Part shown: piece after piece, positions 24,374 through 54,038 of the stretch
Numbering within the stretch: the first letter of the stretch is position 1
Layout of the letters: the number at the start of each line of letters is the position of its first letter
Source of the DNA: Clostridia bacterium
GTDB lineage: Bacteria > Bacillota > Clostridia > Christensenellales > Borkfalkiaceae
Reading direction: 5' to 3'
DNA length: 64,000 bases
Assembly (NCBI GenBank): GCA_017626305.1
Contig: JAGAIW010000181.1
Span: 4,283 to 68,282 of the forward strand
Position numbers and translations under genes: made by a program
The notes under the pieces: model-generated
Seen by the model: only the letters and a program-made list of their open reading frames with translations
Told to the model about the DNA's origin: nothing
Database searches by the model: none

Positions 24374-24385
24374 AGGAGGAAAACT

Positions 24386-27310: not shown

Positions 27311-30238
27311 ATGAAAATAACTAAAACAATTGCCTTAACGGGCTTAACGCTTGCTGGATTGACTATCTTTGCGGCTTGCGGAAATAGAATAGACACGCCT
27401 ACGGGTATCACCATCGACATGAACAATAAGCTCACGTGGACGGCGGTAGAAGACGCCCGTCGTTACGTCGTGGAAATTACGGACGTGGATTCGGGCGAAA
27501 AGAAAGAAGTATCTTCGAAAAAGAACGCTTATTCGTTATCAGGCTTGGAAGAAGGCGAATATTTAATTCGCATAAAAGCGATTGCAGGCAATAAAAACGA
27601 ACAAGACTCCGAATGGTCGGTGCAGTACGAATTTGAAAAGATGTACGAGGCAGGCTGTTTGTATTCGCTCGTCAATAACGTAGAGTACGAAATTATCAAA
27701 GCAGGTTCGGCGTCGGGTGAAGTCATTATTGACGGTACGTATCGTGGAAAACCCGTCACGAGTATCGCCGACAACGCCTTTAAGGGTACGAATGCCATTA
27801 CCAGCGTCGTTCTTGGAGAAAACATTGAGTATATAGGCAAAAACGCGTTCAGCGGTTGCTCGAATTTGACGTCGGTGTCTTTGCCCAACTCGGTAAAGAC
27901 GATCGGTCAATCGGCGTTTAAATCTTGCCGTTCGTTGAAATCGATTACCATTCCCGATACCGTTAAAGAACTCCCCGAAGAAATGTTTGCGTATTGCAGA
28001 GCTTTGGAAACGGTTGATTTGGGAGACGGGTTGGAAGTTATCGGCGAATCCGCTTTTTCCGACTGTTCCGCGTTGAAATCGATCACCATGCCCGAGAGCT
28101 TGCACACTATCGGCACGTACGCTTTTTCAGCGAATACAATGTTGAAGACGGTGAATATGGGTGAGTCGGTAACGACGATTGACCCGTATGCGTTTTTTAG
28201 ATGCGAGTCGCTTACCGATTTGAATTTTGCCGAAGACGGCGAGTTGGAAGTTATCGGTGAATACGCTTTTTCCGAATGTACCGTTCTTGCGAGCGTGGAA
28301 TTCCCGAAATCGTTAAATGAAATCGGTTATGCGTCTTTCTACGATTGTCCTTCGCTTGCGAGCGTTGACATTCCCGAAACGGTCAAGCGCGTGCGCGAGT
28401 ACGCTTTTAGCGCCACTAAATTCTATATCGACGCCGTAGAAGCGAAAGCTCCGCTTGTCTATGCCGACGACTGGATTATTCATTGTACGGTAAAGGATAG
28501 ATTGTGGAGTATCATGCAGGAAACGATTACGCTTGACGAGTACGGCGGGGAAAGTTTTTCATTGAAAACGGATGAAAACGGAAACGTTTGCGTTATCGGT
28601 ATTGCCGACGCGGCTTTCGCACATTCGAAGAATTTGGATAGAATCAATTTACCCAAATCGGTTAAATACCTTGGTGTATATTCCTTTTATAAAAATATCG
28701 AATTAGGGCAGGTAACTCTGTATAACAGTAGTATTCAAACGATCGGCGAACGCGCGTTCCAAAGCTGTACGACGTTAAGTACGTTGAATTTGGCAAACAA
28801 CGAAGGCGAATCGCCCGTGAAACGTATTGACAGCTATGCCTTCTACGGTTGTACGCTATTGAGTAACGACCTTTACGGTGACTCGATTATTCCCGATAGC
28901 GTAGAATCTATCGGTACGTACGCTTTTAAAAACACCTTGCTTTGGAATATGCCAGCCGACGACGGCGTGGTATATGCGGGAAACTGGGTCGTTGGATATA
29001 ACGCCGACACCATTTCCAGCGTGGAGATTAGAGAAGATACGCGCGGTATTGCCGATTACGCGTTTTATCAATGCGAAACGTTACGAACGGTAAGACGTTT
29101 GGCTGTTCCGCTCTATATCGGCAGAGGCGCTTTCTACGGCTGTACGACCTTAGAAGTAGCCAACTTGAATACGGACATGCAAAAAATCGAGCCGTACACC
29201 TTCTATAAGTGTATTTCTCTTACGAGCGTGGATATGCCCAGAGAACTCAAAGAAATCGGGCGTTCGGCGTTCTATAAATGCGAGCATATGGGCGCAATAG
29301 AATTGCCCGCTACGTTGAAAAAAATCGACGCGTATGCTTTTTACGGCTGTACAAACTTAGACAAAGTAACCTTTAAGGTAGATATTGATTTGCAAACGCA
29401 ATCGTTTACAGGCGTGCAATCTATCGGAGATTACGCCTTCTATAAGTGCGCAACCTTGAAGGAGTTGACGCTGCCGAATACCTTGACGGATATGGGCATG
29501 CGTGCGTTCGGCAAATGCGACGCCTTAAAGAAGGTGACGTTTGGTAGCGGCTTGACAAACATTAGCGACCGCGCATTCCAAAACTGCGTATCCTTAGAAG
29601 AAGTCGTCGTTCCGTCCAACATTAAAACGGTTGGGAAATACGCCTTTTATAAATGCACGAGCTTGCGCAACGTCGTGTTGTCCGAAGGCGTGACGCAAAT
29701 TGACGATTACGCTTTCTACGGCGTGGAAAATCTTTGGAAAGTATCATTGCCGCAAAGCTTGGAACGTATCGGTAAATATGCGTTCAAGGGCTGTAAAACG
29801 TTGCAATCGGTTACGTTGCGTAGCTCGGTGGAAGAAATCGGCGCGCATGCATTCTACGGTTGTAAAGACATGACGGTTTACACCGACGCAACGAAGGCGA
29901 ATACGGGCTGGCATTCCCGTTGGAATTCTTCCTATCGTCCCGTGGTTTGGGGTTGTACGTTCTCCGAAGACGGCAGCTACGTCGTTTCGATTACGATCGG
30001 GGAAAAGACCTTCACAAATGCAAAAGCAACGACGACGCTTACCGCGCCCAAGCGCGAAGGCTATACGTTTGCAGGTTGGGCAACGGACGCAGAAACAATG
30101 GAAATTGTTTATCAAACGGGTGAAATCGTAAATGCTCCCGTCGATACGACGGTATACGCCGTTTGGACGGAAGGCGCGGAAGAAATTCCCGCTTTGCCTA
30201 CCCCGCCCGACGGTGGAAACGCCGTACCTGCGCCATAA
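27311..30238 (+). CDS. surface lipoprotein: Fn3-like module + BspA-type LRR array + C-terminal Flg_new repeat
   Basis: 975-aa ORF with GGGAG SD. Lipobox LTIFAA|CGN. KLTWTAVEDARRYVVEI matches the modules in the 3368-aa protein. LRR units follow (e.g. SVKTIGQSAFKSCRSLKSITIPDTVKEL). C-terminal REGYTFAGWATDAE...VYAVW. Confidence 0.9.
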   Translation: MKITKTIALTGLTLAGLTIFAACGNRIDTPTGITIDMNNKLTWTAVEDARRYVVEITDVDSGEKKEVSSKKNAYSLSGLEEGEYLIRIKAIAGNKNEQDSEWSVQYEFEKMYEAGCLYSLVNNVEYEIIKAGSASGEVIIDGTYRGKPVTSIADNAFKGTNAITSVVLGENIEYIGKNAFSGCSNLTSVSLPNSVKTIGQSAFKSCRSLKSITIPDTVKELPEEMFAYCRALETVDLGDGLEVIGESAFSDCSALKSITMPESLHTIGTYAFSANTMLKTVNMGESVTTIDPYAFFRCESLTDLNFAEDGELEVIGEYAFSECTVLASVEFPKSLNEIGYASFYDCPSLASVDIPETVKRVREYAFSATKFYIDAVEAKAPLVYADDWIIHCTVKDRLWSIMQETITLDEYGGESFSLKTDENGNVCVIGIADAAFAHSKNLDRINLPKSVKYLGVYSFYKNIELGQVTLYNSSIQTIGERAFQSCTTLSTLNLANNEGESPVKRIDSYAFYGCTLLSNDLYGDSIIPDSVESIGTYAFKNTLLWNMPADDGVVYAGNWVVGYNADTISSVEIREDTRGIADYAFYQCETLRTVRRLAVPLYIGRGAFYGCTTLEVANLNTDMQKIEPYTFYKCISLTSVDMPRELKEIGRSAFYKCEHMGAIELPATLKKIDAYAFYGCTNLDKVTFKVDIDLQTQSFTGVQSIGDYAFYKCATLKELTLPNTLTDMGMRAFGKCDALKKVTFGSGLTNISDRAFQNCVSLEEVVVPSNIKTVGKYAFYKCTSLRNVVLSEGVTQIDDYAFYGVENLWKVSLPQSLERIGKYAFKGCKTLQSVTLRSSVEEIGAHAFYGCKDMTVYTDATKANTGWHSRWNSSYRPVVWGCTFSEDGSYVVSITIGEKTFTNAKATTTLTAPKREGYTFAGWATDAETMEIVYQTGEIVNAPVDTTVYAVWTEGAEEIPALPTPPDGGNAVPAP
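27721..29880 (+). repeat. coding BspA-type LRR array inside the 975-aa ORF
   Basis: Recurring ..IP.SV..IG..AF..C..L units from VTSIADNAFKGTNAITSVVL to VEEIGAHAFYGCKDMTVY. Confidence 0.8.
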
Positions 30239-30358: not shown

Positions 30359-33300
30359 ATGAGGAAGATAAAAAAAGTACTTTTGACGGCTGTCATGACG
30401 TTGCTAATGGGGGTAACGTTCGCTTTTTCCGTTGCTTGCGGCGAAGAAAACGTAACGGTATCCTTTAATACGGGCGACGGGGACGCTATTGCCAGCGTAG
30501 AGCTTAGCGAAGGAAAAGCGTATACGCTGCCTACGCCTACCTACGAAGGATACAGCTTTGAAGGTTGGTACACGAACGCGGAATTTACGGGCGACCCCGT
30601 AACGGATATCGTAGCCAGCAAAAACGTAACCTACTACGCGAAGTGGGAAAAAATGTATTTGGTTACGCTTGACCTTAACGGCGGTGAGCTTGACGTTACG
30701 TCGTTGTACTTAAAGTTAGGCGAAAACGTCTACGACGCCGTATCCGAGCTCGTACCGACCAAAGGCGAGCTTGTGTTCGGCGCATGGTTTGACGGCGAAG
30801 AAGAACTGGGTACGAATACCAGAATGACCGAAGACGGTATCGAACTCAAAGCAGAATACAAAATTAAATACGTTGTGGAATGCTACGAACAAAAGCTTTC
30901 TCTCGACGGATATGATAAGAGCGAAACGACCTACGAAGAATATGCTTACGTAGGCGATACCGTTTTTGCGGAGTATACGTTGGCGGGCTTTGAAGAAATC
31001 GACCACGACAATACGGTTCGCGAATTAGTCATCACCGAAACGCAAGCGGACAACGTTTTAAAGCTCTACTTCGATAGAGAAGAATACGAAGTTGTTTTCC
31101 ACTCCAACGCACCCGACGGTTCTACCGATACCCAGACGTACGAAGTGGTATACGGTCAGGAAATCGACCCCCCGTATGATTATACGGCAAAAGGCTATTG
31201 TCTTTTGGGTTGGGCAAGCAGCAAGGACGGCGAGATTGAATACGAAGCGAACTACATAGATAAGATGCTGCAAAACGCGCAAGCGAGCGAAACGAAAAAG
31301 ATTAAGCCCACCAGAGATATGGCGTTGTACGGCGTATGGCTGGAAGCTTACGTAGACATGTTCGGCAACGACGACTACCTGTATCTTGTAGAAGAAGAAG
31401 TAACGGTAGGCGAAACGACGGTAACGGCATATCACGTATATCTTAGCCGCGGTGACGTATACTTTGAAGGAAAATACGACGCAGAAGACAAATACTTCTC
31501 GTTTAAATCCAACAATAAGACGATTGCGGAAGGTTGGCTTAAAGACGGACGTAAGTTTATCTATAAAAATTCCGACCGCGCTGACGTAATTTGCACGAAG
31601 TATGTCTTTGGCGCAGGCTTGGACGTAGCGGAAAAAATTAAGTTTGACTCGGAAAACGGCATCACCTATATCCAAACGGGTGATGATAATATCGATAAAA
31701 AAGCGTACGGTACGTATTACATCAACGACGAAGGGTATTACGTAGCGAAGTTCGTAGCAACGGAAGATACGACCTTGACGGAGCTCAACGATAAGACGTT
31801 GACCATGACCGTCGGTTACGTTGCAGATTATTCGACGAATAGCTATGTGCCTGCTTTCCAAGTACGCAACGACAACGAAGTGGAAATGGGTTCGCTCGTT
31901 CGTTTCGGGTTTGACCAAAGCGGTCAGCTTGCTTATTTTATCGACGAAAATAGAAAGCCTATTTACGATTTATCGCTTGACGGATTTGGCACGGCGAACT
32001 TCAATTTAGGCGGCGGCGAATACGAATCGTATTTCTACATTCTTGACGACGACGGCGAAACGCTGTATCTTTACGAACGTCAACAAGGTCAGTTGATTAT
32101 GACCATGAAGATTTTCTACGAAGAACAGTATGAAAAGCTCGGTTATATGCAATACAACAAAGACCTTGTCGGTTCGTTCGGTTTTGGCGACGGCGTCATG
32201 AAACTTGACGGCATATGCAAAGCGACGTACGAAACGGAATCGGGTACGGTTAGTGGATATTATACGTCTTCCGCATCTGCGCTCGGCGGTACGATTGTGG
32301 ATATCCGCATGGGTCAAAACGTCTATAAAATGATCGTTACCATTACGCAAACGCAGCTTGGCGACATGATTATGACGGAAACGACCGTTGAAGAAAAGAC
32401 GTCGACGTATGCAGAATATTATTATATGGAAGAATCGGGCTTGTACTACGCGCCCATGTTGACTATGAACAATGAAAAAGTCGGCGACGCGTACTTGTAC
32501 GGCTATACCCAAGCAAGAACCTATGAAATTGTTTCCAAAGGTACGTATACCTACGATTCCAAGACGGGCTTGTATACGTATACCATGAAGGATACCTTCG
32601 ACGCGCCCAACGTAAGCACGACGCTCGTTGATCTTTCGACGGTAAAAACGATTGTCTTCGCGGTGGATTCTAAGGTAGCGTCGGTTAGCGTACATTACTG
32701 GTATTCCTATTCGTCGGTTGACGGTACGAATTCCGACCCTAACGATAAGACGTATACGTCGGCAGACGGTACGAAATCGTTGTTGCTCGTTTCGGGTATG
32801 GGTATCTATAAAGAAAACGGCGCGATTATCGCTTCTGGCACATACTCCACCAGCGAATCTACGGGGGTTACCACGTTAGCGGCTGCGGACGGTTACTACT
32901 ATTTTGAACTCAGCGAAACGATTGAAGGCGAAGAAACGAAACGTACGCTTGTAAAATTAGACCATGCACCGTATACGTTGAAATGGTTGACGGAAAACGG
33001 TAACGATATCAGTCCTTTGGAAACGTTGGCATTCGACGGTAAGGGCGGCGTAGTATACACCGTTACCACCAAATCGACAGAACAAAACGTTCCTGATACC
33101 GTTGTAAAATATACGGGTAAATATGAAAAGACGGGCGTTACGACGCCGCAAGGCTACTACGTGTTCCGTTTCTCGTCCGAAGCTACGGCGGATCTGGCAG
33201 CGCAGTCGTTTGAATTTATCATCATCAGCGACCACAGCGTGTTTGCAAAATATAATACGAAGTATAACGGCGTATATCAATCGGAAGAATACGGTAAGTT

Positions 33301-35539
33301 AGAACTGGACGGTTACGGTTATTTAGCAACTTGGACGGACACCGAAGGGAATACGTACACCAACAAATACTTCATTGATAAAGACGACGAAATCAAACTT
33401 TCCGTTGGAGAGAACGGCGCGTTCGTATACTTCGATTTGAAGGCGAATCGTGAATTCTCGCTCCGCGGTTTGGAAAACGGTACGTATTTGTACGTAAGCA
33501 ATCAATTGATTGACGAGATCCTTTTCCGCTTTGACGGTTACGGCAATTTGGAAGTAATTGAAATCGTTGAAGACCCCGAAAACGAAGGACAAACCAAAGA
33601 AAATATTCTCGGTAAGGGTACGTACGAGTTTAACGAAGAATGGATTACCATTACGTATAAGCTCACGGGCGACAATCAACCCTACGTTTTGTACGGTCAG
33701 CTCGGATATTACTACCTTGACAGTACGGCGTTTAACGCATTCTTCGAATATACCGAAGAAGTCGTAAAGACGTACGTAAATGCAGCGGACTATACCGTTG
33801 TAAAGCTCGACGGGTTCGGCAACGCTACCGTTCACGGTAAGTACGGTATCGTAGAAAATGGCTACTACACGTTGGTTACCGATTCCTTGCTGTATTACGT
33901 AAATGCGTCCAACACCGACGCGCGCTTGTATACGTACAACGCTGCGAAGGGCACGATTGCTCCCGTTTCGTTGAAGGCAAGGGGCTACTATACGGAAAAC
34001 CTTGAATCGTTGCTGTTCACTAAGTACGGCTTTGCGATTTTCAACGGTCAAACGCGTTATTACTATTACCTTAACGATAACAACGAAGTAACCATCTATC
34101 GTGAAGCGACCGATAGTGATACGAAAGTAAATAAATACGGTTTCGTTGAAGAAGTTTTCGGCGAATACTCCGCAACCAAGGAATACGGCGGTAAGACGTA
34201 TTATGCCAGCGAAAAGAACGCGCTCAGCTTTGAACGTAAAGCGGACAACGCAACGAAATATCCTTATAAAGGTCAACCGCTTACCAAATTAACGTTTTCG
34301 CCTACGGGTGACGGTTCGTTCACCGCTGTCGGCGGCATAACGTTTGGTGAAGGGGAAACGGCGACGTCCAAAGAATGTACGGTAGTACGTAACGTCTTAG
34401 AAGACGGCTCGGTAGAATTCTACGTACTTGTGGATAGTTTCTATCGTTTTGATATTGCGGTAGACTATAAGGGCGACATGGACGAATCGGTAGTCAATAC
34501 CTACGAAATCAAGAGCATGTCGAAAGTGATTTCTACGCCTTCGAATTACTATTTGACAATGCAGGGATTCTACATGCTTATGGGCGCTGCGGATATGGCT
34601 GCGGACTTGGAAAACGCTTACGGTGATATCAGCTTAGTGGCGACGTATAACGAACAAGGCGAAGAAACAGGTTTCTCTTTTGCGGGTTCGTTCTATGATA
34701 AGTCGGCAATGTACGACGTAGACGGCAATATTATCGGCGAATGGAGCGGTATGCCTATCTATGACGTGCAAACGGACGCCGTTATAGATTCCATTGAAAA
34801 GATTCAGTTGAAAGCGAGCAAGTTGTACAAGGCAACCAAGACAGTTGGCGATTACAAATATCATTTGTATTTTACTTTCAGCCAAAATCAATTATTGACC
34901 GGCGTTTACGGTTACGACGTCTATGCGTTCACACGTGAAGAAGTTTTGACGACGGAAGATAAAGCGTATAAAGTATCCATTGAACGCGTAATTACTTCCG
35001 ATAGAAGTATGAAGGCGGGCACGTTCTTCAATATTACGCTGTGCACGGGTGAACAAGGCGGCGACAGCAGCTGGCTCTACACCGAAGTGGGAGCAGGCGA
35101 CGCTTGGTACGAAAAAGACGGATATTTGTACTTTATCGTTCGTACGAAAAATGAAGAAACGGGCTTAATCGAATCTTCCAACTACTATAAGTTAGAGCTT
35201 GAACAAGAGCTTGACGAAACGGTAGAAGGAGAAGGCGCAACGACGAACAAGAACCCCGTTAAAGTATATACGGCGTTTAAGAGCGTTGCTGTTGAAGCGG
35301 TGAATACGTTGTACGCGGTAGGCGACGATAAGTCGTTTATAGATATCAACACGGTAACGGGCAAGGCAATGATTTTGAGCCTGGACGGTGTAGGTTATAT
35401 CGTAATAGACAGCACGTATGACGAAGCGACGAAAACGTATACCGTTAAGCTCAGCGAAAAGCTTTCGTATACGGTAAAGGTAGAAGACAGCGGTAGAGTA
35501 ACGATTATGGAAATTGTTGCTACGGAAGAAAACGCTTAA
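30359..35539 (+). CDS. large surface lipoprotein: N-terminal Flg_new repeats followed by ~1400 aa of unrecognised Tyr/Thr-rich repeat modules
   Basis: 1726-aa ORF with AAGGAG SD. Lipobox FAFSVA|CGE. Flg_new signatures include YEGYSFEGWYTNAEF...YYAKW and KGYCLLGWASSKDG...LYGVW. The remainder has no motif I recognise apart from an internal (L/F)DGxG periodicity. Confidence 0.85.
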   Translation: MRKIKKVLLTAVMTLLMGVTFAFSVACGEENVTVSFNTGDGDAIASVELSEGKAYTLPTPTYEGYSFEGWYTNAEFTGDPVTDIVASKNVTYYAKWEKMYLVTLDLNGGELDVTSLYLKLGENVYDAVSELVPTKGELVFGAWFDGEEELGTNTRMTEDGIELKAEYKIKYVVECYEQKLSLDGYDKSETTYEEYAYVGDTVFAEYTLAGFEEIDHDNTVRELVITETQADNVLKLYFDREEYEVVFHSNAPDGSTDTQTYEVVYGQEIDPPYDYTAKGYCLLGWASSKDGEIEYEANYIDKMLQNAQASETKKIKPTRDMALYGVWLEAYVDMFGNDDYLYLVEEEVTVGETTVTAYHVYLSRGDVYFEGKYDAEDKYFSFKSNNKTIAEGWLKDGRKFIYKNSDRADVICTKYVFGAGLDVAEKIKFDSENGITYIQTGDDNIDKKAYGTYYINDEGYYVAKFVATEDTTLTELNDKTLTMTVGYVADYSTNSYVPAFQVRNDNEVEMGSLVRFGFDQSGQLAYFIDENRKPIYDLSLDGFGTANFNLGGGEYESYFYILDDDGETLYLYERQQGQLIMTMKIFYEEQYEKLGYMQYNKDLVGSFGFGDGVMKLDGICKATYETESGTVSGYYTSSASALGGTIVDIRMGQNVYKMIVTITQTQLGDMIMTETTVEEKTSTYAEYYYMEESGLYYAPMLTMNNEKVGDAYLYGYTQARTYEIVSKGTYTYDSKTGLYTYTMKDTFDAPNVSTTLVDLSTVKTIVFAVDSKVASVSVHYWYSYSSVDGTNSDPNDKTYTSADGTKSLLLVSGMGIYKENGAIIASGTYSTSESTGVTTLAAADGYYYFELSETIEGEETKRTLVKLDHAPYTLKWLTENGNDISPLETLAFDGKGGVVYTVTTKSTEQNVPDTVVKYTGKYEKTGVTTPQGYYVFRFSSEATADLAAQSFEFIIISDHSVFAKYNTKYNGVYQSEEYGKLELDGYGYLATWTDTEGNTYTNKYFIDKDDEIKLSVGENGAFVYFDLKANREFSLRGLENGTYLYVSNQLIDEILFRFDGYGNLEVIEIVEDPENEGQTKENILGKGTYEFNEEWITITYKLTGDNQPYVLYGQLGYYYLDSTAFNAFFEYTEEVVKTYVNAADYTVVKLDGFGNATVHGKYGIVENGYYTLVTDSLLYYVNASNTDARLYTYNAAKGTIAPVSLKARGYYTENLESLLFTKYGFAIFNGQTRYYYYLNDNNEVTIYREATDSDTKVNKYGFVEEVFGEYSATKEYGGKTYYASEKNALSFERKADNATKYPYKGQPLTKLTFSPTGDGSFTAVGGITFGEGETATSKECTVVRNVLEDGSVEFYVLVDSFYRFDIAVDYKGDMDESVVNTYEIKSMSKVISTPSNYYLTMQGFYMLMGAADMAADLENAYGDISLVATYNEQGEETGFSFAGSFYDKSAMYDVDGNIIGEWSGMPIYDVQTDAVIDSIEKIQLKASKLYKATKTVGDYKYHLYFTFSQNQLLTGVYGYDVYAFTREEVLTTEDKAYKVSIERVITSDRSMKAGTFFNITLCTGEQGGDSSWLYTEVGAGDAWYEKDGYLYFIVRTKNEETGLIESSNYYKLELEQELDETVEGEGATTNKNPVKVYTAFKSVAVEAVNTLYAVGDDKSFIDINTVTGKAMILSLDGVGYIVIDSTYDEATKTYTVKLSEKLSYTVKVEDSGRVTIMEIVATEENA

Positions 35540-35576: not shown

Positions 35577-38500
35577 ATGAAGAAACTCAAAAAAATTGCA
35601 ATTAGATGTATGTCGCTTGTCGGCGTAACTAGCATCTTTGCAGGTATTTGTGCACAAAGTTTCAACGGCATAAAGGACGGGGGCGTAAAAGTCTCCGCCC
35701 AAAATGCCGTCCAGAAGATTAACGGGTCTATCGATACGGATATTGAAAAGTATTTTGACGATAGCGTTATCTATAAACTGCCCGAAGGCGTTGCGGAAAC
35801 GCAAGAAATTTCCGTTATCGTCGATATGGCGGTAGATTCGCTGATGGATAAGTACAACCGCGGCGATATCGTCGGCACGGCAAGCGAATACGTCAACTCC
35901 CGTTCGGGTAAGACGATTGCAGACGCAATCTCCGTCAAGAGAAAGATGCTTTTGCAAAAGCTCAACAAATCGGGTGTAAACTATCAGCTTGGTGCAGAAT
36001 ACGACACCGTTTTAAGCGGTTTTGAAATCACCATTCAAGCAAAAGACTTTGAAAAGGTTGGTAATCTTTTCTCTACGGACGCGAATTTGATTGTCGGTGA
36101 AACGTATTTGCCGGCGGAAACGCAAATCATTCACAACGACGTCGACGTGTATGAAACGGGTATTTTCAATACTTCGAAATCGCAATATCAAGGCGACGGC
36201 GTTGTCGTTGCAGTACTCGATAGCGGCTTGGACTACACGCACAGCGCATTTAGCGTAGACAACTTCACGACGGAAAACGAAGCGTTCACGTTAGAAACGG
36301 TTTCCCAAAAGGTAACGGAAACGGTTGCCGCTGAATTTACTTTTGGTTTAACGGGTGAAGACGTTTATTTAAATAAAAAGATTCCCTTCGCATACGACTA
36401 TGCAGATAAAGACACGGACGTATTGCCGACCAACTCCGATCACGGTACGCACGTATCGGGTATTATTGCAGGTAAAGACGATACCATCACGGGCGTTGCG
36501 CCTAACGCGCAGCTTGCGTTCATGAAGGTATTCTCCGACTCGGCTACGGGCGCAAAAACTTCTTGGCTGTTGGCGGCTTTGGAAGACTGCGTAAAGCTCG
36601 GCGTCGACGTTGTTAACATGTCCTTGGGTTCGGGTTGCGGTTTTGCCCGTGAAGTGGACGAAGAAAACGTAAACGAAGTATACGACAGTATTCGTGACGC
36701 AGGCATTTCGCTTGTCGTTTCGGCTGGTAACGCATATAACTCCGCGTTTGGTTCGGAAAAGAACGGTAACTTGGGCTTGACGTCCAACCCCGATACGGCT
36801 ACGGTCGGTTCGCCTTCCACCTATGCGGCATCTATGTCCGTCGCTTCCGTCGACGGTGTAAAGACGCCTTATATCGTCTTTAACGGCGAAGTTATTTACT
36901 TCAACGAAGCGTCGACTTCGGACGCGAAACCCAAAGATTTCGTAGACGATATTCTCGATACGGTTGGCGAGAACGTACAAAGCCATGACTTTGAATACGT
37001 AACCATTCCCGGTATCGGTCGTGAAACCGACTATCCCAGAGAACCGGAATTCTACGCAGGAAAGATCGTACTCGTTAAGCGTGGTACGACGACCTTTGAA
37101 GACAAAGTCCGTATCGCATTGAATATAATGGGTGCGGCAGGTATCATTATTTATAATAACGTTTCGGGTACGATTTCCATGTCCGTCGGTAAAGATATCG
37201 GTGCGGTATGTTCCATTTCGCAGGACGAAGGGGAAATGCTGGCGGAACAGGGTACGGGTATTCTCCATATTGATAGAAGCCACGTGGCAGGTCCTTTCAT
37301 GTCCGACTTCTCGTCTTGGGGCCCTACTTCCGATTTACAAATAAAACCTGAAATTACGGCGCACGGCGGCGAAATTCTTTCGGCAATCCCCGGTCAAGCA
37401 TACGACGTACAATCGGGTACGTCCATGGCAGCGCCTAACCAAGCAGGTGCAACGGCGCTTATCCGTCAATACGTCAAATTCAGCAAGACGTTTGGGGAAA
37501 ATTTGAGCCCGCAAGAAGTTACAAAGCTTGTCAACCAACTTATGATGTCCACGACGGATATCGTCATGAACAAGAACGGTTTGCCTTACGCGGTTAGAAA
37601 GCAAGGTTCGGGTCTTGTCAATATCAATAAAGCCGTAACGTCCGCCGCATATATCACGACGTTTGAAAAAGACGGCACGGTTATGGATAAAACCAAGTTG
37701 GAACTTGGTGACGATAAGAAGAAGACGGGTGTTTACGACACCATTAAGTTTGCTATCAATAACGTAAGCGGTAGCACCGTTTCGTATGATATTTCTTCCA
37801 TTCTTATCACCGAAGGCATCAGCGAAACGTATACCGGTCATAGTGAAACGACGGTAACGCAGGAAGGCTATCTTTTAGACGAAGCGGTAACCAAGGTAAC
37901 GGGCGTTGAAGGCGGTCAATTGGATGGAAACGTCGTAACGGTCGCAGCCAACGGAACGGCTACGGTTACGGTAGAGATTAAGCTTTCCGAAGCAGAAAAG
38001 AAATACATGAACGATTCGTTTGCGTACGGTATGTACGTAGAAGGATTCATCAAATTACAAGCCAAGAGCGGTACGACGGTGGATATGAGCGTGCCCATGC
38101 TCGCCTTCTACGGCGACTGGACGCAATCGCCCATCTTCGACGAAGAATATTACGATACGCACGCAGACGAGCTCAACGAAGGTAAAGACCACGAAGATAA
38201 AATCATGGCGGACTCGTATGCAACGCGCGTAATCGGCGGCTTGTATAGCGACTATATCGCAACGCTCGGTTCGTACTATTTTGAACAAGATCCAGCTGCA
38301 ACGAAGATTGCTGCAAGTAAAGACCGTATTGCGATTTCCAACCAACAAAGAGATCAAAATTCTTCTATCAATACGCTCAGTTACGTTTGGGCAGGCTTGC
38401 TCCGTAACGTAAAAGAAGTGGATATCTCCATTGTGGAAGATTCTACGGGTAAGGTTGTATTTGAAAGAACGAATTATAACCAACATAAATCGTTCGGTAA

Positions 38501-44695: not shown

Positions 44696-47320
44696 ATGAA
44701 CAAGAAAAGAATGATAGCTCGCGCAATGAGTCTTGCCCTTTGTGGCGTCATTTGCGGTAGCACGCTCACGTCGCTTGTCGGCTGTGGTGGCGGTGCGGAA
44801 AAGAGTAGTATCGTACTGATGACGGAAGAACTCAGCGGTTTATTTAACCCGTTCTATGCAACGTCTGGTACGGACATGGACGTCGTGGGCATGACGCAAA
44901 TCGGCATGCTTTCCACGGATAAAAACGGTATGCCTGTGGCAGGTGAAGATCATCCGACGGTTGTAAAAGATTTTGAAATTGAAACAATCGGCGAAGGCGA
45001 CGATCAGGAAACGGTATACACGTTCGTATTGAAGGACGATTTGCTCTTCTCGGACGGCAAACCCCTTACCATGAACGACGTTATGTTCAATATCTACGAA
45101 TACCTTGACCCCGTATATACGGGTTCGTCTACCATGTATTCCATTAAGATTAAAGGTCTTTACGAATATAGAACGCAAAAGAGCTCGGAAAACTCCGCGG
45201 GCGCAGATGACGATATCGCAAAGTCGGCGTCCCTTCACGCAACCAACCGTAAGTTAGAACTTTTGCGTATTTATGAAACCAAAGGTAAAGTGCCTGGTTC
45301 TACTTCGTCGTATAGCTATACCGAAGAGCAAATGAAGGCGGCAATCAACAGCCATACGGCTACGCCTGGTTATCGCGCAGCTGTGTCGGCAGAGACGAAG
45401 GACGACGCTTTCTATCGTCAAAAGCTGTTGGAAGACTATGAATTTGCGTTAAAGACGTTTAAGGAAGAGTTGGAATCCGACTTCAAGGCAGCAAAAGAAT
45501 CGTACGATTTGACGACTATGCCTTATAGCGAATGGAAGACCGAGCTTTCCAACGACGTATTTAAATTCTTGTTGTATGAAAACGTAATCAAGCCTAAATA
45601 TGCAAAATATCCCGAAGGACATCCCAAGCAGGGGCTTGACAATAAATTAAAGATTGAAAAATTTGAAGGTACGGACGTATTAGCGACGTATAATACGAAA
45701 GAAAAAGCCATTCAAAAGATATATAACGACACCGTTGTTTCTGAATTTAATAAAATTTTGACGCAATGGGGTACGGCAGGTACGTTGACCACGAAATATA
45801 CGGCGGACGCAACTTCCGTTATTTTGCACGGCACGAATGTGGACGGACTGTGGCGCGATTATATTGAAGGCGTTGTTTCTTTGGGCCATATGACCGACGT
45901 TAGCACGGTTACGGTAAACGGTACGCCTTACACCGTAGCGCACGAACATAATGAAGACGGTACGCCTAAGAATGCAGACGAATACGACGTACTTCAAATC
46001 ACCGTAGACGGTATTGACCCTAAGGCGATTTATAACTTCGGATTCACGGTTGCACCTGCGCACTATTACTCTGCGGACGATAACGGCGTTGTCCCTGAAA
46101 GCAGACAAATCGACATTAAAAATCATAAGTTTGGCGTAGAATATGCAAGCAGCGATTTCCAAAGCAAGGTTATTCAATCGCAAAAGCACGTAGAAGTACC
46201 CGTTGGCGCAGGTCCTTTCAAGGCAACTGACGCAAACAACTCGGATAATCCTTCGGGCGATACCTTCTGGACGAGCAACGTCGTATTCTTTAAGAAAAAC
46301 GATAAATTTGAATTCCCTGTAAAAGCGGATAAGATTCGTATGCAGGTTGTAAGCTCCACCAACGCTTTGGATAAGCTGGAAAAGGGCGAAGTTGACTATA
46401 TCTCGCCTCAATACAGTAAGAATAATGCGCCCCGTATTAACAATTTGGTATCCAAAGGCTTTAAGAAATTGCTTACCGATCAGCTTGGTTACGGTTATAT
46501 CGGCATCAACGCAGGAAAAATTCCCGACGTGTATATCCGTCGTGCCATTATGGCAGCAATGCAACCGCAACTTGCAACGCAATATTACGAAGTAGGTATG
46601 TGTCAAAATATCGACTGGCCTATGTCCAAAGTAAGCTGGGCATATCCCAAGAACGATGACGGCTCGTACGCTACCAACTCTGCTACGCATACGCAATGGA
46701 CGGGAAGAGCTGCTGCGGAAGCTAAAATTAAAGAGTTGATGGCACAGGCAGACCCTAGCGCGTCGAAGAAAATTAGATTTACGATTGCAGGTGCGTCTAT
46801 TACCGAACACCCTACTTATGAAGTATTCAAGCAGGCAGCGGAAATTCTCAACGATTTGGGTTGGGAAGTAGAAGTAAAAGCAGACTCGCAAGCACTCACC
46901 AAGCTTTCGACTGGTGCGCTTGAAGTATGGGCAGCGGCATGGGGATCGACGATTGACCCTGATATGTATCAGGTTTACCACATGAACTCCACGGCAACGT
47001 CCGTTTACGCTTGGGGTTATCGCGAAATTAAGGAAAATCAAACGTTGTATAGCTACGAATACAACCAAATCAAGGCGCTTAGTGCAATCATTGACGAAGC
47101 TCGTACGATTGACAGTAGCACGGATGCGGGAAAAGCGTCGAGATCGGCTAAATACAAGGAAGCAATGAGCATTGTGCTTGACTTGGCTGTGGAAATGCCC
47201 GTATATCAACGTCAGACGTTGTGGCTGTATAATCCCAAGACGGTTAAAGGCTTTAACGATAACGTAAACCCTTACTCTTCGCCGCTTGAAAAGATTTGGG
47301 AACTTGAATTAGTAAAATAA
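44696..47320 (+). CDS. ABC transporter substrate-binding lipoprotein, family 5 (Opp/Dpp peptide type), unusually long
   Basis: 874 aa from the ATG at 44696, with GGAGG SD at 44682-44686. Lipobox LTSLVG|CGGG. Family-5 hallmarks: LMTEELSGLFNPFYATSGTDMDVVGMTQIGML, FVLKDDLLFSDGKPLTMNDV and VPVGAGPFK. Four Opp-type transporter genes follow. Confidence 0.85.
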   Translation: MNKKRMIARAMSLALCGVICGSTLTSLVGCGGGAEKSSIVLMTEELSGLFNPFYATSGTDMDVVGMTQIGMLSTDKNGMPVAGEDHPTVVKDFEIETIGEGDDQETVYTFVLKDDLLFSDGKPLTMNDVMFNIYEYLDPVYTGSSTMYSIKIKGLYEYRTQKSSENSAGADDDIAKSASLHATNRKLELLRIYETKGKVPGSTSSYSYTEEQMKAAINSHTATPGYRAAVSAETKDDAFYRQKLLEDYEFALKTFKEELESDFKAAKESYDLTTMPYSEWKTELSNDVFKFLLYENVIKPKYAKYPEGHPKQGLDNKLKIEKFEGTDVLATYNTKEKAIQKIYNDTVVSEFNKILTQWGTAGTLTTKYTADATSVILHGTNVDGLWRDYIEGVVSLGHMTDVSTVTVNGTPYTVAHEHNEDGTPKNADEYDVLQITVDGIDPKAIYNFGFTVAPAHYYSADDNGVVPESRQIDIKNHKFGVEYASSDFQSKVIQSQKHVEVPVGAGPFKATDANNSDNPSGDTFWTSNVVFFKKNDKFEFPVKADKIRMQVVSSTNALDKLEKGEVDYISPQYSKNNAPRINNLVSKGFKKLLTDQLGYGYIGINAGKIPDVYIRRAIMAAMQPQLATQYYEVGMCQNIDWPMSKVSWAYPKNDDGSYATNSATHTQWTGRAAAEAKIKELMAQADPSASKKIRFTIAGASITEHPTYEVFKQAAEILNDLGWEVEVKADSQALTKLSTGALEVWAAAWGSTIDPDMYQVYHMNSTATSVYAWGYREIKENQTLYSYEYNQIKALSAIIDEARTIDSSTDAGKASRSAKYKEAMSIVLDLAVEMPVYQRQTLWLYNPKTVKGFNDNVNPYSSPLEKIWELELVK

Positions 47321-47348: not shown

Positions 47349-48338
47349 ATGTTTAAGTATATACTAAAAAGAATAGGGGTATCCTTGCTGATTTTACTCG
47401 GTGTATCCTTTATTCTCTATGCACTTCTTCGTTGCTTGCCTACTAGTTTCGTTGATTTAAAAATCGAAGCGTTTATGAGCAATATGGGTGAAGCAGTTAC
47501 GCAGGAGTTCAAAGATCAATTATATAAAACGTACGGTCTTGACGGTACGATTGTAGAAGGATATTTTGGTTGGTTAGGAAACGTTTGCCGCTTGGAATTT
47601 GGCAACAGCTTTGTCAACCAGCGTCCGGTGTTGGCGGAAATTTTCAACGCTAATAGACTGGGCACGTCCTTCTTCTTCGCCGCGATCTCTACCGTGTTTG
47701 AATTTTTGCTTGCCATTCCGCTCGGCGTAACGGCAGCTCGTCATCAGTACTCTATTCGTGACTATGCGGTTACGGTATTCGTACTGATCGGTATTTCTTT
47801 GCCGTCCTTCTTCTTTGGACAGTTGCTCAAAGACCTGTTCGCGAACAAGCTCGGTTGGTTTCCCGTTTCTGGTATGTTCGACCCGAGCTATTCGTATACC
47901 GGCTGGGATGCAATCGTAGACTATTTGCGTCATATGTTCTTGCCCGTTCTCACCGTTGTCGTGCTGAGTATCGGCGGACGTATGAGAATGACGAGAACGA
48001 ATATGCTCGAAGTGTTAAACTCCGATTATATTCGTACGGCAAGAGCAAAGGGGTTGAAGGAAAATAAAGTTGTTTATAAGCACGCTTTCCGTAATACCAT
48101 GATTCCCCTTGTAACAAGCTTGGCAGGTTTGATTCCCGGCTTGTTCTCGGGTGCAATGATTACCGAGTCGGTCTTTGACATTGAAGGGATAGGTAAATAT
48201 GCGCTTACAGCCATGCAGCAAGCGGATATTCCCGTTATTATGACGTATAATATGTTCTTGGCATTCTTGTCGGTTATGGGCGTATTGATGTCAGACTTGA
48301 TGTATGGGATTGTCGATCCACGCGTCAAGCTGGAATAA
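47349..48338 (+). CDS. peptide ABC transporter permease (OppB/DppB-like)
   Basis: 329-aa ORF. MFKYILKRIGVSLLILLGVSFILYALL is a typical OppB/DppB N-terminus. EAA-type loop SDYIRTARAKGLKENKVVYKHAFRNTMIPLVT. Confidence 0.92.
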   Translation: MFKYILKRIGVSLLILLGVSFILYALLRCLPTSFVDLKIEAFMSNMGEAVTQEFKDQLYKTYGLDGTIVEGYFGWLGNVCRLEFGNSFVNQRPVLAEIFNANRLGTSFFFAAISTVFEFLLAIPLGVTAARHQYSIRDYAVTVFVLIGISLPSFFFGQLLKDLFANKLGWFPVSGMFDPSYSYTGWDAIVDYLRHMFLPVLTVVVLSIGGRMRMTRTNMLEVLNSDYIRTARAKGLKENKVVYKHAFRNTMIPLVTSLAGLIPGLFSGAMITESVFDIEGIGKYALTAMQQADIPVIMTYNMFLAFLSVMGVLMSDLMYGIVDPRVKLE

Positions 48339-48350
48339 AGGAGAAGGGAA

Positions 48351-49427
48351 ATGGAAGAAAAGAAAGAATTGGATATGCAATCCGAAGAAATTCAAGAAAC
48401 CACAGCAGCCCTTTCCGTGGATACGCCTGTGGAAGATAGTGAAACGCCGCTCGATAAAAACGTCAAGCTCATGTCGCCTACGCGCATGTTGCTCCGTCGT
48501 TTCTTCCGTTCTAAGCTTTCGCTTATAGGGTTGATTATGCTTGCCGCGCTGGTTGTATTTTGTTGGCTTGGTCCAGTCGTATATACCCGTTGGGGCGAAA
48601 CGGAAACTGACCGTGTCGGGGTGGCGGATTTCGACGAAGAGATTATTATAACGGAAAACGGAGAAGAATATATTCAGCTTATTATAACGGAAAATGATAT
48701 CAATAAGTTAGCTCCGCCTTCGTGGGATCACCTTCTTGGTACGGACGAAAAGGGCTTAGATATCTTGACCCGTTTAATGTACGGTGGACAACTGTCCTTG
48801 ACGGTTAGTTTTTCCGCGGTATTCTTAACGTCGTTGCTGGGGATCGTGCTCGGTGGTGTTGCGGGCTATTACGGGGGAGTGGTAGATAATATTATCATGC
48901 GTATATGCGATATGCTGATGTGTTTGCCTACCCTTCCGTTGATGTTGATTATCGGTACGGTTTTGGACGCAAACGGTGTCCCGCAGGAGTACTACATATA
49001 CCTTTTGATGGGGCTATTATCCCTGTTCTCGTGGACGGGTATGGCGCGTTTGGTACGTGGACAAATTTTGTTCCTTCGTGAGCAAGAATATATGGTTGCG
49101 GCAGAAGCCATGGGGTATTCGACGCCGAGAAGAATTTTCAAGCACTTGTTGCCCAACGTATTGCCGCAGATTATCGTTTCCATGACCATGTCGCTTGGTA
49201 GCATGATTTTGTACGAATCTACCTTATCCTATTTAGGGTTAGGTGTAAGAGTTCCGTATGCTTCATGGGGTACAATGATTGAAATTATATCGAAAGATCT
49301 CAGCATTTTCCAAAATAACTTCAACGTTTGGGGACCTCCGGGTATTTGTATCGTTATCGCCGTACTTGGTTTCAACTTTATAGGGGACGGTCTGCGCGAC
49401 GCGCTTGACCCGAAACAAAGGAGATAA
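48351..49427 (+). CDS. peptide ABC transporter permease (OppC/DppC-like) with an acidic N-terminal extension
   Basis: 358-aa ORF with WDHLLGTDEKGLDILTRLMYGG and EYMVAAEAMGYSTPRRIFKHLLPNVLPQI. It has a ~50-aa N-terminal extension and an insert in the first external loop. Confidence 0.92.
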   Translation: MEEKKELDMQSEEIQETTAALSVDTPVEDSETPLDKNVKLMSPTRMLLRRFFRSKLSLIGLIMLAALVVFCWLGPVVYTRWGETETDRVGVADFDEEIIITENGEEYIQLIITENDINKLAPPSWDHLLGTDEKGLDILTRLMYGGQLSLTVSFSAVFLTSLLGIVLGGVAGYYGGVVDNIIMRICDMLMCLPTLPLMLIIGTVLDANGVPQEYYIYLLMGLLSLFSWTGMARLVRGQILFLREQEYMVAAEAMGYSTPRRIFKHLLPNVLPQIIVSMTMSLGSMILYESTLSYLGLGVRVPYASWGTMIEIISKDLSIFQNNFNVWGPPGICIVIAVLGFNFIGDGLRDALDPKQRR

Positions 49428-49429
49428 GC

Positions 49430-50797
49430 ATGGGCGTATTGAAGAACTTTTTTAAGAAAAATAACGCGGAAGCGGGCAAAACCGCTTCCAGCGGCAATCA
49501 TTACATGACGGGTAAAGAAATCCGTGCGATTGCCAAAGAAAATAATAAAATCATGCGCGCTTTGGAAAAAGAAAAGATGCGCAAAAAGCCCGAATCGGAA
49601 TATCTTTCTACTATGAAAGATGACAATAACATTCTTGAAATCGAAAACTTACATTCGTATTTCTATACCGACCAAGGGGTTGTAAAAGCGGTAAACGGCG
49701 TTACGTTTTCTATTCCGCTCAATTCGACGGTTGGTGTTGTTGGCGAATCCGGTTGCGGTAAGTCGGTAACGTCTATGTCCGTCATGCGTCTTTTACAAGG
49801 GCCTTCGGGACAAATTGTAGACGGCTCTATCCGTTTCAAGGCAAACGATTTTAAGCGCGACGAAAAGGGGAATTTTATTCCCGTGTACGAAAAAGACGAA
49901 GACGGTAACGTAATTTTCGATCAAGTTCTCGATAAAAACGGGAATGTTAAACTGGATAAAGAAGGGAATCCCGTTCTCAAACCTAGACAAGCAAAAGATG
50001 AAAACGGTATCGGTATTTACGAAAAAGAAGAAAAGGTTTTCGATATCGCAAAAATGCCGATTAACGAAATGTACCGTTTGCGCGGTAGACAAATGTCCAT
50101 GGTTTTCCAAGAACCCATGACGTCGCTCAACCCCGTTTTCACTATCGGCGATCAGTTGGACGAAGTAACCCTGCTCCACGTTCCCGGGGCAACCAAAGAA
50201 CTTGCGAAAAAACGCTCGATTGATATGCTCAATTTGGTAGGGATTGCCATGCCCGAGCGTGTTTATGCTTCTTACCCCCACGAATTGTCGGGCGGTATGC
50301 GTCAACGTATCATGATTGCTATGGCGCTTGCAGGCGAACCCCGTTTGATTATCGCGGACGAACCGACTACGGCGCTTGACGTAACCATTCAAGCGCAGGT
50401 TCTTGATTTGTTTAATGATTTGAAGACGAGAATCAACGGTTCTATCCTGCTCATTACGCACGATTTGGGCGTTATTGCAGAAATGGCGGATTACGTTGTA
50501 GTCATGTATGCAGGTAGAATTATCGAACAAGGTACGGCGTCGGAGATTTTCCATAATCCCTGCCATCCGTACACGCAAGGCTTGCAGAAGTCTAAACCGA
50601 CCATGAAGTCCAACGAAGAGCAGCTTTTCAATATTCCCGGTAACGTTCCCAACCCTGTGGATATGCCCAACTATTGTTACTTTAAGGAAAGATGTTCACA
50701 ATGTATCGGCAAATGCTCCGGTGAATATCCCTGCATGGTACAGGTAAGCCCTACGCATTTCGTAGCTTGCCATTTGTACGACGCAAAGGAGAATTGA
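49430..50797 (+). CDS. peptide ABC transporter ATP-binding protein (OppD/DppD-like) with an N-terminal extension and a ~65-aa insertion
   Basis: 455-aa ORF with Walker A GESGCGKS, FQEPMTSLNP, signature LSGGMRQRIMIAMAL, Walker B IIADEPTTALD, ITHDLG and a C-terminal Cys-rich oligopeptide-ATPase tail. Confidence 0.92.
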   Translation: MGVLKNFFKKNNAEAGKTASSGNHYMTGKEIRAIAKENNKIMRALEKEKMRKKPESEYLSTMKDDNNILEIENLHSYFYTDQGVVKAVNGVTFSIPLNSTVGVVGESGCGKSVTSMSVMRLLQGPSGQIVDGSIRFKANDFKRDEKGNFIPVYEKDEDGNVIFDQVLDKNGNVKLDKEGNPVLKPRQAKDENGIGIYEKEEKVFDIAKMPINEMYRLRGRQMSMVFQEPMTSLNPVFTIGDQLDEVTLLHVPGATKELAKKRSIDMLNLVGIAMPERVYASYPHELSGGMRQRIMIAMALAGEPRLIIADEPTTALDVTIQAQVLDLFNDLKTRINGSILLITHDLGVIAEMADYVVVMYAGRIIEQGTASEIFHNPCHPYTQGLQKSKPTMKSNEEQLFNIPGNVPNPVDMPNYCYFKERCSQCIGKCSGEYPCMVQVSPTHFVACHLYDAKEN

Positions 50798-50798
50798 T

Positions 50799-51893
50799 AT
50801 GACGGAAGAAATGAATTTGAATACAGAAGATTTCGTTAATTTCGACGACGTTGCGGAAAAGGAAAAAGAGCTTGCCGCCAAAGCGGAAAAAATCGAGCAG
50901 GATAAATTACTCCCGCCCGATCCCGAAGCGTTGTTGGAAGTTCGGCATTTGAAAAAATATTTCACGCTGAAAAAGACGCTGATGGGTAAAACGCTTGCCA
51001 GCTTAAAGGCTGTCGACGACGTTTCCTTCAAGATTAAACCGGGCGAAACGCTTGGTATCGTAGGGGAATCGGGCTGCGGTAAGACGACGATGGGTAGAAC
51101 GGTGTTGAAATTGCATCAACCCACCGAGGGGCAAGTCTTCTTTGAAGGAGTGGATATTGCAAAATATACCCCTAAACAAATGCGCGAGCTCCGCACGAAA
51201 ATGCAGATTGTTTTCCAAGACCCGTATTCGTCCTTACCGCCTAGAAGTACGGTAGGCGATATTTTGGCAGAGCCCGTAAAGGTGCATAAAATCGTTCCGC
51301 CTGAACAGGTAAAGGAATACGTGCTGAAAATTATGGAACAATGCGGCTTGCGTGATTACTATTACGAAAGATACCCGCATGAATTCTCGGGCGGTCAACG
51401 TCAACGTATTTGTATTGCGCGTGCGCTTGCCGTTAGTCCCAAGCTTGTCGTTTGCGACGAACCCGTTTCGGCTTTGGACGTTTCCATTCAAGCGCAAATT
51501 ATCAACCTTTTGAAAAAATTACAAAAGGAAAGACAGCTGACGTATTTGTTCATCTCGCACGATTTGTCTGTCGTAAAATATATTTCGGATAAAATCGGCG
51601 TTATGTACTTAGGCTCGATGGTGGAATTTGGTAACAAGGAAGAAATTTTCAATAATCCTTTGCACCCGTACACCAACGCATTGTTCTCGGCTGTACCTAA
51701 CCCCAACCCTGACGAAAAAGGCAACCGTATTTTGCTCAAAGGGGATATCCCTTCGCCTGCAAATCCGCCTATGGGTTGTAAATTCCATACCCGTTGTCCT
51801 AAGGCAATGGAAATCTGTAAGCATATCGAGCCCGCTTATACCGAACAAGAACCCGGACATTTCGTGGCTTGCCATTGTTATCAGGAGAAATAA
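50799..51893 (+). CDS. peptide ABC transporter ATP-binding protein (OppF/DppF-like)
   Basis: 364-aa ORF with Walker A GESGCGKTT, FQDPYSSLPP, FSGGQRQRICIARAL, VCDEPVSALD, ISHDLS and a C-terminal GCKFHTRCP motif. It has a ~45-aa N-terminal extension. Confidence 0.92.
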   Translation: MTEEMNLNTEDFVNFDDVAEKEKELAAKAEKIEQDKLLPPDPEALLEVRHLKKYFTLKKTLMGKTLASLKAVDDVSFKIKPGETLGIVGESGCGKTTMGRTVLKLHQPTEGQVFFEGVDIAKYTPKQMRELRTKMQIVFQDPYSSLPPRSTVGDILAEPVKVHKIVPPEQVKEYVLKIMEQCGLRDYYYERYPHEFSGGQRQRICIARALAVSPKLVVCDEPVSALDVSIQAQIINLLKKLQKERQLTYLFISHDLSVVKYISDKIGVMYLGSMVEFGNKEEIFNNPLHPYTNALFSAVPNPNPDEKGNRILLKGDIPSPANPPMGCKFHTRCPKAMEICKHIEPAYTEQEPGHFVACHCYQEK

Positions 51894-54023: not shown

Positions 54024-54038
54024 AGTTCCCGTCTCCTT

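Follow-up and report, generated by a model that had tools for sequence, protein, structure and literature searches.

In Lactococcus, the surface subtilase PrtP makes oligopeptides and the Opp transporter imports them, the enzyme being built, in order, from a pre-pro region, a protease domain with a PA insert, an A domain, a B domain, a helical H domain, a Pro/Thr-rich W domain and an anchor. An LPXTG motif is typical of such cell-envelope proteinases but not universal, PrtB and PrtH being without it. We analyzed a window of 64,000 nucleotides from an uncultured gut Clostridia bacterium (contig JAGAIW010000181.1; all positions given below are those of this window) which encodes, at 35577 to 43079 of the + strand, a 2,500-residue surface protease that joins a peptidase S8 domain with a PA insert to fn3 and immunoglobulin (Ig)-like domains, an array of LRR_5-type leucine-rich repeats (LRR) and a C-terminal transmembrane (TM) helix. 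The best explanation of the sequence is that the gene product is an active subtilase belonging to the cell-envelope-proteinase clade (lactocepin PrtP / C5a peptidase / SpyCEP type), and we put at roughly 60% the probability that the protein is a nutritional, membrane-anchored cell-envelope proteinase feeding oligopeptides to a co-encoded Opp transporter.

Like lactocepin PrtP (and PrtS, PrtB and PrtH), the window protease has a predicted signal peptide, a putative pro-region, an S8 domain with a PA insert and an Fn3-like 'A' domain, followed by a long C-terminal extension whose last parts are a helical spacer, a linker rich in Pro, Thr and Glu, and an anchor; like PrtP it would also work in partnership with an oligopeptide ABC importer, as gene linkage suggests here. 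Unlike PrtP, it carries Ig-like domains and approximately 25 LRR_5 repeats in the position of the B domain, its anchor is a TM helix instead of an LPXTG motif, no PrtM-like maturase was seen near it, and its host belongs to an uncultured gut Clostridia lineage. Moreover, its opp genes are adjacent and co-oriented, whereas in Lactococcus they lie elsewhere in the genome.

The streptococcal enzymes C5a peptidase (ScpA/ScpB), SpyCEP/ScpC and CspA share the S8, PA and Fn3 region with the window protease and are its closest solved structures, but they are LPXTG wall-anchored, have no LRR array and cleave specific host immune mediators; to our knowledge none of them is encoded beside an Opp operon. 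The LPXTG serine peptidases of the NCBIfam model NF040553 differ in having the LPXTG motif, and the C-terminal 1,600 residues of the window protease are unrelated to them. The repeat type is that of the BspA-type LRR_5 surface proteins (T. forsythia BspA, TpLRR, PcpA, HupY/LrrG), none of which carries a protease, whereas the array here is situated within one, next to the membrane anchor.

The protease is encoded by a single + strand open reading frame (ORF) that opens with a TTG at 35514 and closes with the stop codon ending at 43079, and which translates without internal stop or frameshift and has an even base composition throughout 35577-43079. We chose as start the first ATG in the frame (35577), which is preceded 9-12 nt upstream by a weak AAGG; from there the protein has 2,500 residues and an N-terminus, MKKLKKIAIRCMSLVGVTSIFAGICAQS, that is typical of signal peptides. 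In a hydropathy scan, hydrophobic spans are confined to aa 7-25 (the signal peptide) and aa 2444-2475 (the TM helix).

The signal peptide (aa 1-27, with a predicted cleavage site and a core at aa 7-25; 35577-35657) lacks a canonical lipobox and is followed by a pro-region-like segment (aa 28-200; 35658-36176; orthologue identity 0.50), of which the conserved residues 46-200 align with the N-terminal part of the NCBIfam SGO_0316 model, the match beginning at aa 48. By analogy with cell-envelope proteinases, this propeptide would be removed during maturation. The Peptidase_S8 domain (PF00082, 152.6 bits against a cut-off of 21.8) covers aa 206-679 (36192-37613) and contains Asp, His and Ser in order within DxG, HGTH and GTSMA motifs, together with the oxyanion Asn. 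These residues are D215 (codon 36219), H289 (36441; the first His of HGTH), N385 (36729) and S616 (37422); all four are unchanged across 22 aligned orthologues, and the triad and oxyanion Asn are also kept in homologues of 33-35% identity. Between N385 and S616 lies the PA domain, a hallmark of cell-envelope proteinases (Pfam core aa 485-552; 37029-37232; PF02225, 40.1 bits), and a second hallmark, an fn3_5 domain (aa 722-841; 37740-38099; PF06280, 36.4 bits against a cut-off of 27.6), directly follows the catalytic domain and is itself followed by the motif VPMLAFYGDW. The nearest solved structures of this catalytic head are C5a peptidase, SpyCEP and CspA (E 1.8e-65 to 9e-48 across aa ~200-860, with alignments of ~500-660 residues), the ScpA and SpyCEP alignments reaching aa 860. 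The best NCBIfam match of the whole protein is NF040553 (SGO_0316/SGO_0317), at 243 bits over aa 48-865, which falls far short of the cut-off of 1400. An earlier interpretation of the window made from its letters and ORFs, hereafter the sequence-only reading, had placed the protein among the PA-containing S8 cell-envelope enzymes; its triad codons were exact, its PA insert between His and Ser agrees with the Pfam assignment, and the motif of the segment that it had called C5a-peptidase-like Fn3 (VPMLAFYGDW) is the one that follows the fn3_5 domain.

Beyond the head, an AlphaFold2 model of aa 851-1400, built from a 22-sequence alignment (mean predicted local distance difference test score, pLDDT, 68.8), is all-beta and consists of approximately five Ig/Fn3-like sandwiches in a string. 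The first three or so occupy aa 851-1170 (38127-39086), with low confidence for the initial 64 residues. Foldseek retrieves generic tandem-Ig proteins with this model (S-layer Sap/EA1/SbsC, cadherins, invasin, LigA and SpyCEP), and the best query TM-score is 0.26, to SpyCEP 5xyr; scores are low because the inter-domain geometry is uncertain. The last two sandwiches (aa 1171-1385; 39087-39731) are those that the sequence-only reading had described as Big_2-like. Pfam Big_2 (PF02368) itself gives no match to the window protease at E<=0.01, and the Big_2-related HL_N-beta family matches at the border of significance at aa 1326-1364 (27.2 bits against a cut-off of 27). The label is nonetheless fair, because two beta-sandwiches are modelled at aa ~1170-1382 (pLDDT ~75-92) and distant homologues have two Big_2 domains above threshold (51-60 bits) at the equivalent position.

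The LRR_5 array spans aa 1392-2265 (39750-42371), in close agreement with the extent proposed earlier (39750-42365), and consists of tandem BspA-type repeats with several insertions. Pfam LRR_5 (PF13306) scores 376.7 bits against a cut-off of 27.7 in seven stretches, and a motif scan returns 26 'G..AF' matches between aa 1419 and 2246; we count approximately 25 repeats because at least one of these matches (aa 1826) is off-register. Relatives of the array in the PDB include the structural-genomics LRR_5 entries 4fs7, 4gt6 and 4h09, as well as 6mlx and 4cp6, and take in TpLRR and PcpA; the HupY/LrrG model scores 137, short of its cut-off of 1250. While orthologue identity over the array is 0.52 overall compared with 0.74-0.80 in the catalytic domain, its length is well conserved (gap fraction 0.037), and the first repeats (aa 1401-1500; 39777-40076) reach 0.78, equal to the catalytic domain. 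These first repeats hold an insertion, NYEYVEKDLAAGDVIDDEDPYQIKQMYIGEDT, with invariant acidic and glycine residues (D1428, G1432, D1433 and E1438), a loop which could be a metal-binding or partner-binding site.

In an AlphaFold2 model of aa 2150-2500 (pLDDT 77.5), the solenoid end carries a beta-hairpin insert and is followed by capping turns, a helical bundle, a disordered PPTEE linker and a long TM helix. The cap consists of degenerate solenoid turns (aa 2266-2356; 42372-42644; orthologue identity 0.60) and is followed by the small helical bundle (aa 2357-2427; 42645-42857; model residues 208-278, pLDDT ~83-96), the Pro/Thr/Glu-rich linker PPTEEPVTPPTEEE (aa 2428-2443; 42858-42905; low pLDDT), and the TM helix (aa 2444-2475), modelled as a single long helix, with its charged cytoplasmic tail (aa 2476-2500; together 42906-43076), the tail beginning RKK and then becoming acidic. 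Foldseek with this model returns LRR_5 structures only, at E>=0.004, including for the cap, and no informative match for the helical bundle. A sequence scan finds no LPXTG in the window protease, which has the TM helix in the place of this typical cell-envelope-proteinase feature. Among the homologues of 12 related loci there is likewise no C-terminal LPXTG, a single internal LPxTG occurring at residue ~2260 of 2456, and among the 150 nearest representatives one has the motif near its C-terminus and is itself without an LRR array; a C-terminal TM helix is present in most homologues. Hydropathy and structure prediction thus bear out what the sequence-only reading had proposed for this end of the protein (a helical segment, a linker, a single TM span with a charged tail and no LPXTG), and the composite architecture of protease, Ig-like domains, LRR array and TM span that it described is real, with domains confirmed within one uninterrupted ORF.

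Seven of the homologues with 33-35% identity (at loci L056, L060, L062, L066, L067, L071 and L074, from genomes labelled Anaeroplasma, Acholeplasmatales, Anaeroplasmataceae, Bacilli, Christensenella sp., Ca. Limihabitans and Ca. Neoclostridium) combine the C-terminal TM helix with a lipoprotein-type N-terminal signal (for example ...IATAVSC, ...VTLCACS, ...SVAAC), so that both ends of their precursors would be tethered, whereas the signal peptide of the window protein is a plain one.

To assess how widely this architecture is distributed, we searched 5.8 billion proteins with the full-length protease and recovered at least 120 orthologue clusters (2,424-2,557 aa, 54-70% identity, 96-100% coverage), all of which carry PF00082, PF02225 and PF13306. 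Named members of these clusters are called 'leucine-rich repeat protein' at NCBI and 'putative PA domain protein' at JGI. A scan of one genome per species identified at least 434 genomes encoding a relative; the metagenome-assembled genomes (MAGs) concerned derive from sheep, deer, chicken, rabbit, mouse, yak and human gut, and their labels include Ca. Borkfalkia, Ca. Scatosoma, Christensenellaceae and 'Clostridia bacterium'. MAGs labelled Anaeroplasma, Mollicutes, Bacilli, Ca. Neoclostridium and Ca. Limihabitans also encode full-length relatives, at 33-35% identity, and Pfam analysis of three such distant proteins recovers the same order of S8(PA), fn3_5, two Big_2, LRR_5 and C-terminal TM. 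Two separate contigs of one MAG (L061 and L076; CALCWU01, 'uncultured Mollicutes') each hold a full-length or nearly full-length homologue, and some genomes may therefore carry two copies. Similarly, a HMMER search with aa 200-870 gave 2,438 matches at E<=1e-30, and approximately 120 of the best 150 representatives at 50% identity also contain a region homologous to the LRR array, most of these ending in a hydrophobic span; representatives without the array are mostly fragments shorter than 1,500 aa.

Several observations indicate that the fusion of protease and LRR array is old and that the two parts have been inherited together. The stretch across the junction (aa ~1385-1500) is among the best conserved of the protein (0.63-0.78 identity), and the identities of the catalytic and LRR regions co-vary across 237 full-length homologues (Spearman rho 0.88), with the caveat that below ~50% catalytic identity the LRR identity sits at a generic floor, such that the array may have been replaced in the most distant members. 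The window's array is 24-28% identical to those of two neighbouring LRR proteins, a generic LRR_5 similarity, which together with the co-varying divergence rules out a recent swap from these neighbours. Consequently, two elements of the sequence-only reading do not stand: that the protein is an unusual chimera, since the same layout is found in more than 120 orthologue clusters and at least 434 species genomes, and that its LRR module has a specific kinship with those of the neighbouring adhesins.

The protease gene is followed on the + strand by a gene for a 524-aa lipoprotein (43105-44679; lipobox LAAC), which starts 25 nt after it, and then by genes for a family-5 solute-binding lipoprotein resembling OppA (888 aa; 44654-47320; lipobox LVGC; Pfam SBP_bac_5), which overlaps the preceding gene by 26 nt, and for OppB, OppC, OppD and OppF (47349-51893). 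These last are two BPD_transp_1 permeases and two ATPases with oligo_HPY tails (NCBIfam Opp4B, Opp4C, OppD and DppF-OppF), and with the family-5 binding protein they make up the full set of an Opp/Dpp-type (PepT family) importer. The best NCBIfam names for all five transporter proteins are oligopeptide systems, with scores below the equivalog cut-offs except for the OppF-like ATPase (421 against a cut-off of 408 for a dipeptide ATPase subfamily). In the OppA-like protein, a ~300-aa insertion splits the family-5 homology, the Opp4A match ending at ~aa 179 and the main Pfam match starting at aa 504, and PDB matches are limited to aa 117-153 and 558-637. OppD (49430-50797, +) is long, at 455 aa, and its ABC match is divided in two, a trait shared with the mycoplasma OppD model MMSYN1_0167. 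Of the 79 related loci, 51 have the 524-aa lipoprotein, and those with homologues of 33-36% identity lack it; apart from one weak Flg_new repeat it has no match in Pfam, NCBIfam or the PDB. From the protease through OppBCDF, gene spacing varies from the 26-nt overlap to gaps of 28 nt, and all genes share one strand. No terminator-like + strand site was found in the short intergenic gaps, in a promoter and terminator scan whose counts were at or near shuffled expectation and which is no evidence on an operon either way; the protease and transporter genes may be co-transcribed.

The linkage of protease and importer was further investigated by tblastn of the window proteins against the 79 related loci, 44 of which have at least 8 kb on both flanks. 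In 43 of these 44, three or more opp genes are found beside the protease on the same strand, and in the remaining one a solute-binding protein and OppB lie 6.4 kb downstream, also on the same strand. The opp genes are downstream of the protease in 53 loci and upstream in 10. In loci of the Clostridia group the protease is followed by the 524-aa lipoprotein and then by opp (gap 1.7-2.25 kb), whereas in the distant group the opp genes are upstream in 10 of the 14 loci showing them (gap 0.3-1.6 kb) and downstream, with no 524-aa lipoprotein between, in four. That the linkage has persisted through deep divergence as well as rearrangement argues that protease and Opp are functionally coupled. The sequence-only reading made no comment on this transporter, whose constant presence favors nutrition over an attack on host immune factors.

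Collectively, these data are most consistent with the nutritional proteinase proposed above. The signal peptide would export the protease and the C-terminal TM helix would hold it on the cell, replacing the LPXTG-sortase link. Beginning at the membrane, a stalk would be formed by the Pro/Thr/Glu linker, then the helical bundle, then the ~870-aa LRR_5 solenoid and lastly the approximately five Ig-like domains, in an order that parallels the B, H, W and anchor modules of PrtP; it would keep the S8, PA and fn3_5 head off the membrane and probably beyond the wall, where it would cleave extracellular proteins (of the diet, the host or other microbes) to oligopeptides; these would be captured by the solute-binding lipoprotein, encoded two genes downstream, and imported by OppBCDF, the locus being a self-contained 'protein utilisation' unit. 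The organism is probably walled, because Ca. Borkfalkia is reported to have Gram-positive-type penicillin-binding proteins and spore-forming ability (PMC6839795). An enzyme anchored in the membrane would in that case have to extend over tens of nanometres, a distance that the solenoid and Ig string could plausibly span. The LRR array may both space the head from the cell and help to hold substrate. We infer the substrates and the nutritional role of the protease.

Several points weigh against a nutritional role of this kind. The closest solved relatives of the head are streptococcal immune-evasion proteases and not nutritional ones, and no PrtM/PrsA-like maturase appears in Pfam scans that covered the majority of the window's larger ORFs. 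Opp4A matches the highly divergent solute-binding protein, with its large insertion, at 69.7 bits where the cut-off is 650, and the peptide specificity of the transporter is assumed; the ligands of family-5 binding proteins also include nickel, opines and sugars. Furthermore, an 870-aa array of conserved length whose first repeats are 0.78 identical is beyond what a passive spacer would need, and a comparison of the concave face of the LRR solenoid with other variable positions reveals no conserved binding surface (0.42 versus 0.45 identity, the concave positions being neither more conserved nor hypervariable). This last comparison is uninformative as between a binding surface and a stalk, while the conserved length, together with first ~100 LRR residues that match the active site in conservation, suggests a specific contact.

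Tentatively, the role of the LRR array may extend further. The locus would then be a Gram-positive protein utilisation locus with a logic like that of the polysaccharide utilisation loci of Bacteroidetes, in which the LRR_5 solenoid, whose first repeats and acidic loop are so highly conserved, serves as a dedicated platform for capture or hand-over, holding substrates or docking the insertion-bearing OppA-like protein and the 524-aa lipoprotein and so coupling cleavage and uptake physically. A module of this kind, common to MAGs labelled Clostridia and to MAGs labelled Bacilli, Anaeroplasma or Mollicutes, would be a core feeding device of distantly related, uncultured gut Firmicutes, an extension that we consider somewhat unlikely to hold.

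Next to be weighed is the idea of the sequence-only reading, in which LRR binding would bring substrate or host targets to the protease: a protease-adhesin directed at the host, whose LRR_5 array would bind a host glycoprotein, matrix or immune component that the subtilase then cleaves, in the service of colonisation or immune evasion. The best solved relatives of the head include C5a peptidase and SpyCEP, which cleave C5a and IL-8, those of the array include the pneumococcal surface antigen PcpA and TpLRR of T. pallidum, some BspA-type LRR proteins are adhesins, the carrier organisms are gut-associated, and the first LRRs are conserved like the active site, all of which would fit such a function. 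The invariant co-orientation with an Opp importer, however, is not expected of an immune-evasion factor, the occurrence of full-length relatives in MAGs from chicken, ruminants, deer, rabbit, mouse and human makes a single host-specific target unlikely, and the concave-face residues are neither more conserved nor hypervariable. We therefore regard host-directed activity as unlikely.

The array might instead be purely architectural, a rigid solenoid stalk replacing the lactococcal B/H/W spacer and having no ligand of its own, in an enzyme that is still nutritional. Its position between the catalytic head and the membrane anchor, its conserved length (gap fraction 0.037) and the lack of excess conservation on its concave face are consistent with a stalk, as is the long reach that a membrane anchor needs if the cell is walled, as the Gram-positive-type penicillin-binding proteins reported for the related genus Borkfalkia would suggest (PMC6839795). 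Nevertheless, the five Ig-like domains give reach already, approximately 25 repeats are a large cost for a spacer, and the 0.78 identity of aa 1401-1500 with their invariant acidic loop, the one observation that a pure stalk does not accommodate, suggests a specific contact, such that a stalk and nothing more appears quite improbable. Finally, the concern, also raised in the sequence-only reading, that protease and LRR halves are separate genes joined by mis-assembly or sequencing error near 39750 has nothing found in its favor and is effectively refuted, given the continuous frame and even base composition across the gene, a highly conserved junction shared by more than 120 independently assembled orthologue clusters and the 79 related loci, and the co-varying divergence of the two halves.

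Other genes of the window include further very large surface proteins. Immediately upstream of the protease, ending 37 nt before its start, is a gene for a 1,726-aa lipoprotein with Flg_new repeats (30359-35539, +) whose position is kept in 40 loci; it and the product of 27311-30238 are both very large and of lipoprotein type. A 3,368-aa lipoprotein (8840-18946, +) combines 23 LRR_5 stretches (1,387 bits) with Flg_new repeats. Upstream of the surface-protein genes lies a Bat-operon-like cluster (20362-27259, +) encoding a MoxR AAA+ ATPase, a DUF58 protein, a BatA/VWA protein and a VWA protein; the last VWA gene is kept upstream of the protease in 35 related loci, and the whole cluster is seen in locus L055. 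Convergent with the opp genes are those for an [FeFe]-hydrogenase large subunit (HydA-like) and a NuoF-like flavoprotein (52257-55922, -), which look like part of an electron-bifurcating hydrogenase, as would fit a strict anaerobe. The window also contains a nucleoside-salvage cluster (3471-7794, +) with DeoC aldolase, purine nucleoside phosphorylase, a phosphopentomutase-like metalloenzyme and pyrimidine nucleoside phosphorylase, and three large ORFs (56762-63582, +; 772, 770 and 636 aa) with only Metallophos and weak Filamin-repeat matches.

A literature search found no description of a protease combining S8 and LRR_5, in keeping with the statement in the sequence-only reading that the architecture was not recognised as described; a paper naming both Pfam families lists them in different proteins, and the founding Borkfalkia paper does not mention proteases or peptides. 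Of the two prospects that reading had held out, that the architecture might prove common and already characterised, the first is borne out and the second is not: this is a widespread, uncharacterised variant of the cell-envelope proteinase, whose database name hides the protease. Because such names ('leucine-rich repeat protein', 'putative PA domain protein') omit the protease activity, function-based surveys would miss it. The enzyme class and its logic are familiar; what is new is the design of anchor and stalk, the hard-wired linkage to Opp and the breadth across uncultured gut lineages.

If the nutritional interpretation is true, a giant surface protease tied to a peptide importer is common to many uncultured Firmicutes of the vertebrate gut, the carriers being Borkfalkia, Scatosoma and Christensenellaceae-labelled MAGs together with relatives labelled Anaeroplasma, Mollicutes and Bacilli. 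This would extend the cell-envelope proteinase paradigm, drawn from dairy lactic acid bacteria and streptococci, to a design based on a TM helix and an LRR solenoid. Proteolysis and peptide uptake would then be among the defining features of how these bacteria feed, with a bearing on protein fermentation in the gut and on their culturing.

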